Assembly (NCBI GenBank): GCA_964596525.1
Contig: CAZQUL010000001.1
Coordinates: 1,015,723 to 1,079,722 of the forward strand
DNA from: an uncultured Gammaproteobacteria bacterium
GTDB taxonomy: Bacteria > Patescibacteriota > Patescibacteriia > Magasanikbacterales > GWA2-37-8
Direction of reading: 5' to 3'
DNA: 64,000 bases
Notes under the pieces: generated by a model
What the model saw: only the letters and a program-made list of their open reading frames with translations
Databases searched by the model: none
Told to the model about the DNA's origin: nothing
Translations under genes and position numbers: made by a program
Shown: piece after piece, positions 12,881 to 19,593 of the stretch
Position numbering within the stretch: position 1 is the stretch's first letter
Layout: every line of letters begins with the position of its first letter

Positions 12881-12949
12881 GGTTTCCTCCGTCTCGCGAG
12901 AGACGCCTTTTTGTATCATGTTGTGCGGTAAAAGTCAATGTAAACCATA

Positions 12950-14063
12950 TAAAAACTCCCTCTCCTTATTACAAGGAGAGGGTGGGGCGCATTTGTATGC
13001 TTGTTGCGACAAGATTTTTCTCAGTGCGCCCGAAGAAGGTGGAGCTATATCGTTATATGCCTCGTGAGAGACACGCCGTTATGGAGCTCCAGGTAGGAGG
13101 AGGAAACTAATAGCTTTTCACGTTGGTGAAGCTGGTCCAGCATCCTCCGAAAGATGAGGTTGTATATCCTTGACTCCTAGGGAGGAGATCCCTTTGAATG
13201 ACCTCGTAGAAATTTGGCGGAAGGCATAGTGGTGCGCGGTGCGCAATGGTTCACGTTCCGCCTAAGGGGTTAAAGAGCAGTCGAACCAATTTTTTAAAAA
13301 AGAGATGGACCGGGCTGCTCTTCTAAAGAACGTTACAGGGTGGCAATGTGAGAAGTTCTGCTTGCGAGCATGCTGGGGGTTGTTGCCTTGTCTTAGATTC
13401 AAGTAAATCCAAAACAAGGCAGGGAAGCAGAGTGCAGCGTGTGTGCGAATAAACATCGGGTGCTGTGCTTCCCTAAAGGGCGGTGGAATGTTCACACGTT
13501 TGCGTGACGCAAACCTTTTCATGTTCCACCTTACCGCAAAGTTTTTATAAAACTTTCTGGCAAGGCGAGAAGCATGTTCGACCTTCATTTATACGATTCA
13601 AGAACACGCTTCTCTGAGAAAAAGAGGGGTGATGGATAGCACTTCCTTTTGTAAAGGTATGAAGCCTTTGAGCCCCTTAAATTCGGTCTAAAAGGGAGAA
13701 GCAAGGATCTCATTAGCGTAAGATGCCATTCTGCTGACTGCCTCTCGTACATAGTAGGGCCTCATACAATTTCCTGCCTTTGTTTAGCCCTAAAAGAATG
13801 TAGGAATAAAGGGAGGAGAGTAAATCCTTCATGGATCGTTTGATCCACCGCAATTCATTCTCCTCAGTTTTATTGTCCACGACCGTGTTTCGTGAACAGA
13901 ACGAAGCATGCCCCATACACTCTAAAAAGTCAAGTCTCTATTGAGAGTGCAGCTTGTCGGTATGAAATAAAAACCCCTTCGACATAGACATGTCGAAGGG
14001 GTGGGGTGCATCTACTCATCTGCTCGTGCGGAAGAGGTACTCATGCACCCGAGACAGAAGAGC
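12950..14063. repeat. ORF-poor region, left part: degenerate palindromic stem-loop repeat family (stem GAGAAGnn/nnCTTCTC or variants, 9-40 nt loops, tail TGGGG/GGTGG)
   Basis: Examples: CCCTCTCC/GGAGAGGG hairpin 12958-12982 followed by TGGGGCG; GGGAAGCAGAG 13419-13429 / CTGTGCTTCCC 13460-13470 plus TAAAGGGCGGTGG; GAGAAGCATGT 13567-13577 / ACACGCTTCTC 13601-13611 plus GAGAAAAAGAGGGGTG; CCCCTTCGACAT/ATGTCGAAGGGG 13974-14001 plus TGGGGTG. Confidence 0.6.
13965..14001 (-). terminator. rho-independent terminator of the recombinase-like gene (minus strand)
   Basis: Perfect 12-bp stem CCCCTTCGACAT/ATGTCGAAGGGG with 4-nt loop, followed on the minus strand by TTTTTATTT, 60 nt downstream of the 14064 stop. 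Confidence 0.55.
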
Positions 14064-15875
14064 TTAGTTTGCCTTAAGCAGGGCTTGGGCTGCCTGCGCC
14101 TTGCGCTTCTCTTCGGCTTTGGCCCAGGCCAGCCACCGGCGGAAAATGAACTTGCCGAGCTGGCTCGCGGTGGTCCAGATCGTGCGCGAGAACACCTCGC
14201 CCTTTTTGAGCGCCGGGATGAGCTTTCGCCAGTCGACACTCGGTTTTTCTTCATCGGATACCCCCGCCTTTTTCGCGGGTCGGCCACGCTTTTTCTTGGC
14301 GGGAAGGATGAGCGGCGTGTTGGAAGGATCGAGAGCGACCTTCTCATCGTCTTCCTTTGCGTCCTTGGTGAGGACGGCCGCCCACAGCGCTTCGGCATAG
14401 GCACGTGCCTCATCAGCTGCTTCGGCGGGAATCTCGCCCTTGGCGATGAGCTCTTCGAGAGTCGCGCGTCGCTTCTTGAGGAGGTTCTCGATGGCCCGCT
14501 CCCGGTTCTTATAGAAGGCAACGCGCCAAGGGGCCTGTTCGTTGCGATTCTTCATGAACTGGGTAACGCTCAGGTGATAGGTCGTTTGCAGAATTGACGA
14601 GTGTCGCTGCCGCTCCTTGGCACGGCGGGTCTTGCGCGAAGGAATCATGCGCCGACCATCTTCGCCCTTTTGCGAGGGAACGATGCCGTTATAAGCCAGG
14701 TAACGGCTTTCAGATTTCTTGTCGAACTTGCGCTTAATCTTGCCGCGCTCGTTGCGGCACTCGATCGCCTGCGAGAGGAGCTTCGCCGCTTCCTCGTTGC
14801 CCGGAATTTCCTTGAGATAATCGCGGACCCGGACGAGCTTGCGGAAGTAATCTTTCTCATCCGCGATCGGATTTCCTTCCATCTTGAGGAGCTCGAGTGC
14901 GTCGGTAAGGCCGGCCCGCTTCTCGCAGTCATCGGCCGTGACCTTGAGCTTATCGAGGTGTGCTTGCAGCTCCTGGTTCGGGTGCGCGACAAAGCGGCGG
15001 ATGTCGCCGGTGTAGGCAATGAAGCGCCGAGCAATTTTCTCGCCGATGCCGGAGATGTCCTCGAAGATCTCGCGATAGAGCGAGCTCTTATCGAGAATCG
15101 CTGACACCGCTTTGTCACACATTCTTTCGTGCTCCTCCATTGCAGCATAGCGCTTGCTGTCTTTGAGAAGCTTGTCCCTAGCTCTATCTAGAGCGTCCTT
15201 TGCATCCAAATCTTCGTAGTCGGAGTGCGCGAGCAGCATCAGAAAATTCGTGTGCTCCTGGCGCTGCAAGCGGTTGCCGAGGCGAATACGCTCTTGCATG
15301 GCGTTGAGCGAATCGCGACAAATGCGTACGAGCTCCATATCCTCGAGGTAGAGCCGGTAGAAATCTTGCGGCGCTGCCCCGTACTTAAGCAGGAGAGCTT
15401 CCACCCTCTCGTACTTGCCCACCTTCTCTTCATCTTCTTCGTCAGCGGTTTCTGATTGGCCGTTTTTCCGCGGCGGGGTGGGGGTGTGGCACACCAATAC
15501 CTCGGGACGGAGCTTGAGGGTGAGGTTGGCGTAATCATTGCTGAAACCGCCGATGTACATGATGAGCGTGTCGCTGTCTGCGATGCGTAGCATCTTTTCG
15601 GCGATCTTGAGCGCCTTGCCAAACTTGCGCTGGCGGTAGGCCGGAATCTCGGCGAGGTTATCGGACTCTGCGACAGGTCGCCACTCGATGGGGTAACCGC
15701 GCTTAAGCAAGTCGCGGAAATCGGTGGGGTCGAGCACGGCCTTGAAGCCGCGGTTGTTCGCGATGGTGAGATCAACCTTGTTGGGGTGGATCGCCCACAC
15801 AGTATTCTTCGAAGTGTCGTCGTTTTGGGTCGCAGTGGACATGGCTACTAACTCCTTAGGTTGTCGATGAGCCAC
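14064..15875 (-). CDS. IS110/Piv-family (DEDD-type) transposase/recombinase-like protein, unusually long (603 aa)
   Basis: C-terminal helix-hairpin-helix region matching the IS110 Transposase_20 pattern (ISGIGEKIARRFIAYTGDIRRF ... YLAYNGIVPSQKGEDG, compare PGIGxxTAAxLLAEIGDIxRF ... LAAYAGLVPxxxQSG). GC-rich (about 60%) relative to surroundings. Own terminator downstream. The N-terminal DEDD match is weak and there is a roughly 100-aa insertion inside the HhH domain. Confidence 0.45.
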   Translation of the reverse strand: MAHRQPKELVAMSTATQNDDTSKNTVWAIHPNKVDLTIANNRGFKAVLDPTDFRDLLKRGYPIEWRPVAESDNLAEIPAYRQRKFGKALKIAEKMLRIADSDTLIMYIGGFSNDYANLTLKLRPEVLVCHTPTPPRKNGQSETADEEDEEKVGKYERVEALLLKYGAAPQDFYRLYLEDMELVRICRDSLNAMQERIRLGNRLQRQEHTNFLMLLAHSDYEDLDAKDALDRARDKLLKDSKRYAAMEEHERMCDKAVSAILDKSSLYREIFEDISGIGEKIARRFIAYTGDIRRFVAHPNQELQAHLDKLKVTADDCEKRAGLTDALELLKMEGNPIADEKDYFRKLVRVRDYLKEIPGNEEAAKLLSQAIECRNERGKIKRKFDKKSESRYLAYNGIVPSQKGEDGRRMIPSRKTRRAKERQRHSSILQTTYHLSVTQFMKNRNEQAPWRVAFYKNRERAIENLLKKRRATLEELIAKGEIPAEAADEARAYAEALWAAVLTKDAKEDDEKVALDPSNTPLILPAKKKRGRPAKKAGVSDEEKPSVDWRKLIPALKKGEVFSRTIWTTASQLGKFIFRRWLAWAKAEEKRKAQAAQALLKAN

Positions 15876-18800: not shown

Positions 18801-19500
18801 CTACCTCTCTAAAAAGGGCGGGGTGCATCATGCTTTATTGGCAGCTTTATTGCCGTGTTCACCTTAGCACCCCTTGTTGGAGAGTCGTTGTGTTAACCAT
18901 CCGACAAGAGGGGGAAATGACCGCGCCTTTCTCCTGCTACTGAGAGTGACCTGATTATTTCCCGAAGAGAGCGGGATTAATTTGCCGTTTGGGAATGGGT
19001 TTCCCAAGGTCCGGTATGATCCCACAAGGGTGTGGAGTTCATGCTTTTTAGTGTGCTTAAGAACAAAAGCGCTGCCGAACTCCTTTCCGGCCGCTCGCCG
19101 AGCAAATGGCCAGAAAGGAGGAGAAGTCTGCGGTCAAATGCCCAGAGGGCATGATTCCGAATACTTCTCGAAAGGGAAGTAGGACGGGGGTTTTACATCG
19201 GATGTCCTAAAGACATTATCTTAACATAGCTCCCTAAAAGGGTGAGATTAGAGGTAGCTTGTTGGAGTTCCAAATTCGCTGTCTAATCTCTTTAGAGGCG
19301 GGAAGAATTACTGGTTCTTAGTGAAAAACCGGCTGTTTTCTTCCCTTAGAGTGTAGGTGAATAAAAACGCGTGCGCCTGAGGAGGCTACGATACCTCATT
19401 CACCTTACCTCGATTTTCACGTTAAAAACCAAGGTAAAGAGGGGAGGATTACACGTAATTCTCTGAAAAGAATATGATCTTTTCTTCTCCTTAATGCTCG
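15876..19500. repeat. ORF-poor region, right part: about 20 copies of the same structured repeat family (GAGAAGnn ... nnCTTCTC stem, 30-40 nt loop, (T/G)AAAG(R)GTGGGG tail), some with nested inner hairpins
   Basis: Paired stems seen directly: GAGAAGCAT 16154-16162 / ATGCTTCTC 16195-16203 with inner ATCTTC-GAAA-GAAGAT; GAGAAGCG 16369-16376 / TGCTTCTC 16424-16431 (G-T wobble); GAGAAGTA 16642-16649 / TACTTCTC 16683-16690; GGGGTGTA 16699-16706 / TACACCCC 16741-16748; GGGATCG 16905-16911 / CGATCCC 16950-16956; GAGAAGCG 16991-16998 / TGCTTCTC 17033-17040; GAGAAGT 17567-17573 / ACTTCTC 17612-17618; GAGAAGT 17787-17793 / ACTTCTC 17831-17837. Tail-only copies at about 17030, 17670, 17990, 18290, 18460, 18690, 18740, 18810, 18960, 19165, 19230, 19335. 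Confidence 0.6.
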
Positions 19501-19593
19501 ACCTTACGGTAAATCGGATAAACTGTCAAATCGCTACTGTAAAATATGCGGAATTATAGTACACTAGACTCACTAAAAGTTGATTTCAACCGT

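Follow-up and report, generated by a model that had tools for sequence, protein, structure and literature searches.

Stem-loop TIGR-Tas systems are the closest described counterparts of the locus considered here. Faure et al. (Science 2025, PMC12045711) defined TIGR arrays and described a second, stem-loop architecture, in which the units are variable palindromic stems around two 8-12-nt spacers. The same work distinguishes a TasR clade of the candidate phyla radiation (CPR) that has an inactive RuvC domain, large Nop insertions and stem arrays. According to Xu et al. (bioRxiv 10.64898/2026.09.09.750476), the two spacers of CPR-clade tigRNAs are separated by an extended hairpin (5 bp in CsTasR), the stem-loop tigRNA of PateTasR is about 54 nt long, arrays may flank tas on both sides, processing coincides with CUU at the stem base, and CsTasR, which represses transcription, binds DNA but does not cut it. 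Published stem-loop arrays have a mean of about 7 units (17,756 tigRNAs in 2,559 arrays), and stem-loop Tas proteins are reported without a C-terminal Y/H loop. The present locus occupies positions 12920-19545 of the window, a 64,000-nt stretch (positions 1,015,723 to 1,079,722, forward strand) of contig CAZQUL010000001.1, assembly GCA_964596525.1, deposited as an uncultured Gammaproteobacteria bacterium and placed by GTDB in the Magasanikbacterales of the Patescibacteriota. The best named homologs of its RsmI point to Magasanikbacteria/Patescibacteria. Very probably the locus is a stem-loop TIGR-Tas system belonging to the TasR clade of the Patescibacteria (CPR), which makes it a large and divergent addition to the systems already known and not a new class.

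The segment is bounded by a minus-strand gene starting at 12919 on one side and by rsmI (19546) on the other. An open reading frame (ORF) scan gives a sole ORF longer than 110 aa between them, 14064-15875 on the minus strand, and none of eight short ORFs in the segment rises above threshold in a Pfam scan. The original prediction, made from the letters of the sequence, had called 12920-19545 ORF-poor, and this is borne out, the segment having one real gene. Hairpins, ~95 in all and 68 of them 40-66 nt in length, follow one another closely over the other ~4.8 kb. RNAfold, run with a limited pair span, divides this chain into 73 consecutive folding domains in the right arm and 22 in the left arm (54 and 14 of them, respectively, 40-66 nt long). 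Every testable structural feature published for stem-loop TIGR-Tas systems fits, box C/D seeds excepted. The arrays of 73 and 22 domains flank the gene, and the units consist of a variable palindromic stem enclosing two variable stretches with a secondary hairpin between them. The protein combines a Tas-type Nop RNA-binding domain with an N-terminal RuvC/RNase H-like domain.

Hairpin density varies markedly along the window. Counted in 2-kb bins, perfect 8-bp stems with 20-55-nt loops reach 24 and 16 in the two bins at 16-20 kb and 0-5 in every other. Fold z-scores of 300-nt tiles lie between -3 and -8 in both non-coding arms and are near 0 in the coding sequence and the flanking genes. Strict two-stem units number 31 in the right arm (15876-19545), compared with 6.0 +/- 2.3 (maximum 11) in 40 dinucleotide shuffles, an enrichment of about fivefold; the left arm has 4 in 1.1 kb, and flanking coding DNA has ~1-1.3 per kb. 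The exact motif GAGAAG-N25-50-CTTCTC occurs 9 times in the window, always within the segment. The count of more than 20 units given by the original prediction holds for the wider family, but not for this exact motif, whereas its individual examples (ATCTTC-GAAA-GAAGAT at 16171-16186 and the helices at 16642-16690 and 16699-16748) are found where it placed them.

Pairing in the stems is retained between units of different sequence. In an alignment of 14 units with a hand-written structure, 90.5% of cells are paired, compared with 77.4% after partner shuffling (0 of 500 shuffles reach the observed value) and 45-60% in slid controls, and 11 of the 13 stem pairs vary on both sides. The earlier suggestion that the stems covary is supported to this extent among paralogous units, in a test that is partly circular, since the units were selected for pairing, and that is not independent proof. 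RNAalifold, run on a MAFFT alignment of 26 units, recovers the inner stem only, with the 3' arms misaligned. A covariance model built from the 14 units gives 25 minus-strand matches at E<0.05, of which 14 are units outside the training set. All of these are inside the locus, and the sole other match in the 64 kb is marginal (E 0.56). What is repeated in sequence is the junctions only, spaced 216-219 nt (~217), while the interiors of the units are unique. The longest direct-repeat families in the array (16-34 nt, 61-100% identity) are at unit junctions, and Tandem Repeats Finder reports no tandem array. At gathering score, the only Rfam match in the whole window is a tRNA at 51372-51443. The Rfam search of the segment, which had been put forward as a check, returned no relevant family at gathering or permissive thresholds, the latter giving only sub-threshold matches attributable to chance or to terminator hairpins. 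One of these, to NsiR1 at 13966-14017 (29.9 bits against 39), is the terminator hairpin of tasR.

In the minus-strand reading a unit comprises, in order, a C/U-rich linker, the outer stem, a unique stretch, an inner hairpin, a second unique stretch and the 3' arm. The linker consensus is CCnCCYUUU (CCCUUU type). The outer stem is 7-11 bp long, its base being GAGAAG/CUUCUC or one of the variants GGGAAA/UUUCCC and GGGG/CCCC, and its inner pairs vary between units. Among 35 strict units the unique stretches are mostly 8-12 nt (mode 10), and the stems of the inner hairpin are 4-8 bp (4-7 bp in well-formed units), often of the form UUUCC-N4-GGAAA. The geometry is symmetric, with 17-19 nt from stem base to inner hairpin on both sides, and the units measure 46-57 nt. 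The 3' arms end in CUUCUC or its variants, and CUU is present at the stem base and in the linkers, as expected of a stem-loop tigRNA. That the segment might be a tandem array of a small structured RNA had been offered as a second choice among the initial readings; it was essentially right, the array being made of tandem two-stem units of ~50 nt. In the example guide unit listed in Table 1, read in tasR sense, the linker CCCACCCUUUUU precedes an outer stem AAGAGAAGCAU / AUGCUUCUCU(C), and the unit contains variable stretch A (UUGAAAUG), the inner hairpin AUCUUC-UUUC-GAAGAU and variable stretch B (ACUGUUCG). The best-scoring unit reads CGAGAAGUAC / AGGUUCAUU / UUUCC-UCG-GGAAA / UGCACCGCA / AUACUUCUCA. 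Interspersed with such units are spacer-less "connector" hairpins with stems of 13-16 bp, one per ~217-nt super-unit, whose 5' arm is the CCCUUUC linker motif itself. These may act in processing or as insulators. A break in the array at 18528-18645 could be a sub-array boundary or an internal promoter.

An ATG at 15842, preceded at a distance of 8 nt by AAGGAG, is the probable start of the gene between the two arms. Pfam gives no match for its 592-aa product, whose sole match in NCBIfam is to the IS110 model NF033542, at 28.5 bits against a cut-off of 140. Searches of a word-indexed protein collection, with the single protein and then with the family alignment as query, returned only the protein itself. 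Relatives were found by exhaustive HMMER search alone, which gave 112 distant ones with 22-41% identity (mostly 25-30%) and a typical length of 400-670 aa. A family profile of 32 of these matches the solved TIGR-TasR structure 9MTY in three segments (E 6e-29); 18 of the 32 members touch Pfam Transposase_20 and 7 touch DEDD_Tnp_IS110. An AlphaFold2 model made with the family alignment has a predicted local distance difference test score (pLDDT) of 81 and a predicted template modelling score (pTM) of 0.79, and Foldseek ranks 9MTY first for it with probability 1.0. Because both profile and model match 9MTY, the protein is, as modelled, a TasR with an RNase H/RuvC-like domain, a coiled coil and a Nop-type RNA-binding domain. 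At the site of the first catalytic Asp of IS110 and active TasR proteins, the family consensus is RxIGIRHRVK, with no conserved acidic residue at that position, in agreement with the R8 reported for inactive CsTasR. The N-terminal strand bearing this consensus in the relatives is not alignable at all in the protein of the window. The RuvC-like domain is predicted from these alignments to be degenerate and inactive. In the AlphaFold2 model the last helix reaches the C-terminus, and the Y/H processing loop of dual-repeat Tas proteins is therefore absent.

Several features bear on the transcribed strand. With GU pairs forbidden in folding, G:T and A:C mismatches number 14 and 17 in the right arm and 1 and 6 in the left, giving no strand signal. 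G-T wobbles, which the original prediction took to favour the plus strand, are thus no commoner than their A:C counterparts, and that argument is not confirmed. In the minus-strand reading the linkers of the window are C-rich and G-poor (C 0.36, G 0.06), as are those of the relatives in gene sense (C 0.28-0.44, G 0.08-0.22). CUU is found in 29 of 71 linkers in the minus-strand reading versus 12 of 71 for the complement. The two strongest terminator-like hairpins of the locus are both on the minus strand, and a hand count of 4-nt inner loops gives UUCG or GNRA in 6 of 15 for the minus-strand reading versus 2 of 15 for the plus. Because of linker polarity, CUU bias, terminators and loop count, the evidence favours an array transcribed on the minus strand, co-oriented with tasR; the plus-strand transcription first supposed is probably wrong, given where linker polarity and terminators point.

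Related loci support the association of array and gene. Five loci of distant homologs (L003-L007) all have tandem 45-55-nt hairpin arrays beside the gene. L003 has ~10 units and L004 ~24, the latter with linkers of the types cccttt, cctt and ctttc and with interleaved 29-nt hairpins analogous to the spacer-less connectors of the window. L006 has ~17 and L007 at least 21 unit-size hairpins in the flanks scanned. The largest array, in L005 (2494-5978, 3.5 kb), has ~66 tandem 45-nt units with 5-nt ccaNc linkers and a four-stem super-repeat of ~203 nt; its TasR homolog is P0131 (614 aa). Near-duplicate units in it (4405-4449 and 4808-4852) suggest that this array grew by block duplication. L007 has tandem TasR paralogs at 1564-3330 (588 aa) and 4824-6839 (671 aa) with a hairpin array between them, and the first paralog matches the family profile with an hhalign probability of 100% (E 9e-97). 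Multi-kb arrays are a trait of the TasR clade of the window. The covariance model derived from the window gives no convincing match in the arrays of the relatives, as expected where array sequences are locus-specific. Domain-less ORFs have been called in or beside the arrays of L003 (4982-5431, 149 aa), L005 (1854-2303, 149 aa) and L007 (6989-7723, 244 aa). The first, wholly inside a hairpin array, is most likely spurious, and the other two are suspected to be so.

By analogy with the described systems, the array and tasR would be transcribed together on the minus strand as long precursors, which a host RNase would cut near CUU motifs into tigRNAs of ~50 nt. One TasR dimer would bind each tigRNA, and the two variable stretches would serve as split spacers, each pairing with a different strand of a DNA target of 18-20 bp. 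With its RuvC-like domain apparently degenerate, the complex would bind without cutting and block transcription. The most likely function would be RNA-guided DNA binding, or repression of transcription, without cleavage.

Some observations weigh against assignment of the locus to a stem-loop TIGR-Tas system. A split-spacer search allowing up to 3 mismatches found 15 sites in the 57 kb outside the array, compared with 7-16 for shuffled spacers, the window being ~5% of the 1.34-Mb genome. The box C/box D seeds of TIGRFinder (CNA-N9-YG, twice) give 0-1 matches in the units of the window; this was a simple re-implementation, and it is a weak test, since the arrays of the relatives also give 0-1 matches. 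No conserved nucleotides are found at the spacer borders of the units, and sequence conservation lies at the stem base here but is box-proximal in the preprint of Xu et al. TasR itself is very divergent, no cluster representative exceeding ~30% identity to it, and degeneration of its RuvC-like domain may have gone far enough to impair function. Part of the left arm seems to have decayed, and wobble statistics identify no transcribed strand.

A doubtful extension of the same assignment is that the locus represents an undescribed variant of the array, in which ~70 chromosomal hairpins are organised into ~217-nt super-units and guides alternate regularly with spacer-less hairpins whose 13-16-bp stems sequester CCCUUUC. 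If this were true, the connector hairpins could be modules for processing or insulation, such as points where a double-strand-specific RNase enters, and would bear on the unsolved maturation of stem-loop tigRNAs. Large-scale RNA-guided regulation, of genes either of a host cell or of the bacterium itself, would then also be suggested by the presence of dozens of guides in a symbiont genome of 1.3 Mb.

A further reading is that the locus is a decaying, non-functional TIGR-Tas remnant, a member of the family by descent whose protein is inert or whose array is largely so. An N-terminal strand that the relatives conserve is missing or unalignable, the left arm is irregular with its 4 strict units in 1.1 kb, many hairpins have no clear inner hairpin, and box motifs were not detected in the units. 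Such a remnant is nevertheless improbable, although decay is conceivable for the irregular left arm. The ORF is intact over 592 aa and is accompanied by a Shine-Dalgarno site, a terminator and a confident predicted fold. The stems keep their pairing through compensatory differences and the geometry is kept within +/-1-2 nt; both argue for continuing selection.

The plus strand would acquire a role if the hairpins formed a long multi-hairpin non-coding RNA independent of the protein, for example a sponge or scaffold. Its linkers (AAAGGAGG) would resemble Shine-Dalgarno or CsrA sites, being A/G-rich and often containing GGA or GGAGG, and the wobble statistics are compatible with plus-strand transcription. 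The linkers, however, have the polarity that five related loci show in gene sense, the minus strand carries the strong terminators and the UUCG/GNRA tetraloops are commoner in the minus-strand reading (6/15 vs 2/15). Rfam gives no match and the architecture fits tigRNAs, which leaves a plus-strand non-coding RNA very improbable.

The reading preferred by the original prediction was a cluster of palindromes like repetitive extragenic palindromes (REP) or bacterial interspersed mosaic elements (BIME), with an IS110-family insertion sequence transposed into it. The DNA is indeed palindromic, extragenic and clustered, and the gene is distantly related to IS110. A GC content of 57.8% in tasR (14064-15842), compared with 46.3% in the array (12920-14063 and 15876-19545) and 51% in the rest of the window, could suggest insertion. 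This reading is nonetheless rejected as barely credible. The 57 kb of the window beyond the locus contain no such unit, so that dispersal of the GAGAAG...CTTCTC units, which would have made them REP-like, is not what is seen within the 64 kb. The interiors of the units are unique and not conserved, and the units have a two-stem build of fixed geometry. By fold the gene is a TasR, below IS110 thresholds (28.5 vs 140 bits, and no Pfam match); it is the only real gene in the segment, where no RAYT-type gene is found. Its distant homologs always carry arrays, and gene and hairpins therefore travel together.

Equally hard to credit is an active IS110-type element with bridge RNAs encoded in its non-coding ends, the hairpins serving as donor or target loops, since the DEDD positions are unconserved in the family, there are ~70 tandem units versus the single two-loop bridge RNA of ~180 nt, and neither a second copy nor element boundaries were seen. 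An IS110 family insertion sequence was likewise rejected as a classification, on catalytic residues, family thresholds and unit number. The initial proposal that the hairpins are substrates of an embedded DEDD recombinase was sound in tying them to the IS110-like protein and to RNA guidance, but the protein is, by its modelled fold, a TasR, and the hairpins would be guide RNAs instead of DNA substrates.

Table 1. Features of the putative stem-loop TIGR-Tas locus, in coordinates of the window.
Feature	Position	Strand	Description
tasR	14064..15842	-	predicted 592-aa TIGR-associated protein: RuvC-like N-terminal domain, coiled coil, Nop/IS110-type RNA-binding domain
Upstream array (tasR sense)	15893..19542	-	73 domains, 54 of 40-66 nt; at least 31 strict units, with short spacer-less hairpins between them
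Downstream array part, more degenerate	12946..14050	-	22 domains, 14 of 40-66 nt; 4 strict units
Covariance-model matches in downstream array	13098-13159, 13273-13333, 13422-13483, 13567-13624	-	4 matches
Unit-like hairpin between tasR stop codon and terminator	14004-14050	-	within downstream array part
Example guide unit	16152..16205	-	covariance-model match, 51.7 bits
Best-scoring guide unit	16641..16691	-	53.7 bits
Spacer-less "connector" hairpin, example	16104..16153	-	pyrimidine-rich 5' arm, 16-bp stem
Other connector hairpins	16261-16303, 16953-16990, 17287-17327, 17745-17785, 17896-17940, 18180-18219, 19080-19120	-	
Array break	18528..18645	.	perfect 14-bp AT-rich hairpin (18528-18560), then ~85 nt without a family unit
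Intrinsic terminator of tasR transcript	13973..14002	-	13-bp stem, then UUUUUAUUU
Intrinsic terminator-like hairpin, distal array end	12958..12982	-	11-bp stem, then AGUUUUUAU; just before the minus-strand gene start at 12919

Additional observations concern the surroundings of the locus. The gap in GC content between tasR and its own array has protein composition and recent transfer of the gene alone as candidate causes. The minus-strand ORF adjoining the array (12266-12919, 217 aa) has no match in Pfam or NCBIfam. In the window (~8750-9700, Memo in the annotation of the Logan contig L001) and in the distant relative L004 (1158-1937) alike, the tas locus has a Memo/LigB-family gene at a distance of a few kb; this nearness is probably a coincidence. 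A scan of the genome collection with RsmI found one relative, at 62% identity, with no array upstream of its rsmI. L001 is identical to the window and gives no strain variation.

The first description of TIGR-Tas systems dates from 2025, and what they target in nature, how their arrays grow and how stem-loop tigRNAs mature are still unsolved. The contribution of the locus is modest. It is a very large and highly divergent example, chromosomal, from a Magasanikbacteria-like genome whose near-complete contig makes the whole genome searchable for targets. Simple hairpin-density scans find such arrays though published motif seeds fail, which suggests that catalogues are incomplete. In related contigs, gene callers appear to place spurious ORFs on such arrays.

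Compared with known systems, the locus resembles CRISPR arrays in having tandem guide units with unique targeting segments beside an effector gene, but it has no identical direct repeat, two short spacers per unit and no adaptation genes. A CRISPR array was rejected as a candidate, near-identical direct repeats of 25-36 nt not being found by Tandem Repeats Finder or among the junction repeats (16-34 nt, 61-100% identity). REP and BIME are likewise clustered imperfect extragenic palindromes, but a REP is a short element of conserved sequence that is scattered through the genome and associated with RAYT, whereas the units here stay within a single locus, linked to a Tas gene, and each has an interior of its own. 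IS110 bridge recombinases (IS621, ISCro4) share a homologous Nop-type RNA-binding domain, an RNase H-like N-terminal domain and a guide RNA with two internal loops. They differ in having a single bridge RNA per element, DEDD and Ser catalysis and mobility, none of which is seen in the window. Dual-repeat TIGR arrays (TaTasR, PDB 9MTY; TasH) are built of conserved 8-12-nt edge and loop repeats, yield 36-nt tigRNAs and go with active nucleases and a Y/H processing dyad, in contrast to the variable stems, ~50-nt units and degenerate nuclease domain predicted here.

The closest likeness is with the CPR TasR stem-loop systems, such as CsTasR (547 aa) of Candidatus Staskawiczbacteria. The present locus differs from them in its ~68 unit-size hairpins (at least 35 strict) over 4.8 kb, compared with the published mean of ~7, although L005 has ~66. 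Units are regularly interleaved with spacer-less hairpins of 13-16-bp stem in ~217-nt super-units, canonical box C/D seeds are undetected in a crude scan, and the protein, without the N-terminal strand of its relatives, has no more than ~30% identity to any other cluster. In common with the CPR TasR systems, the locus belongs to the Patescibacteria and has a large TasR with an expanded, predictedly catalytically dead RuvC-like domain, insertions in the Nop domain and no C-terminal Y/H loop. It also shares with them arrays on both sides of the gene and units of ~50 nt, each with a variable palindromic stem, two stretches of ~9-10 nt and an inner hairpin of ~5 bp, with CUU at the stem base and in the linkers.

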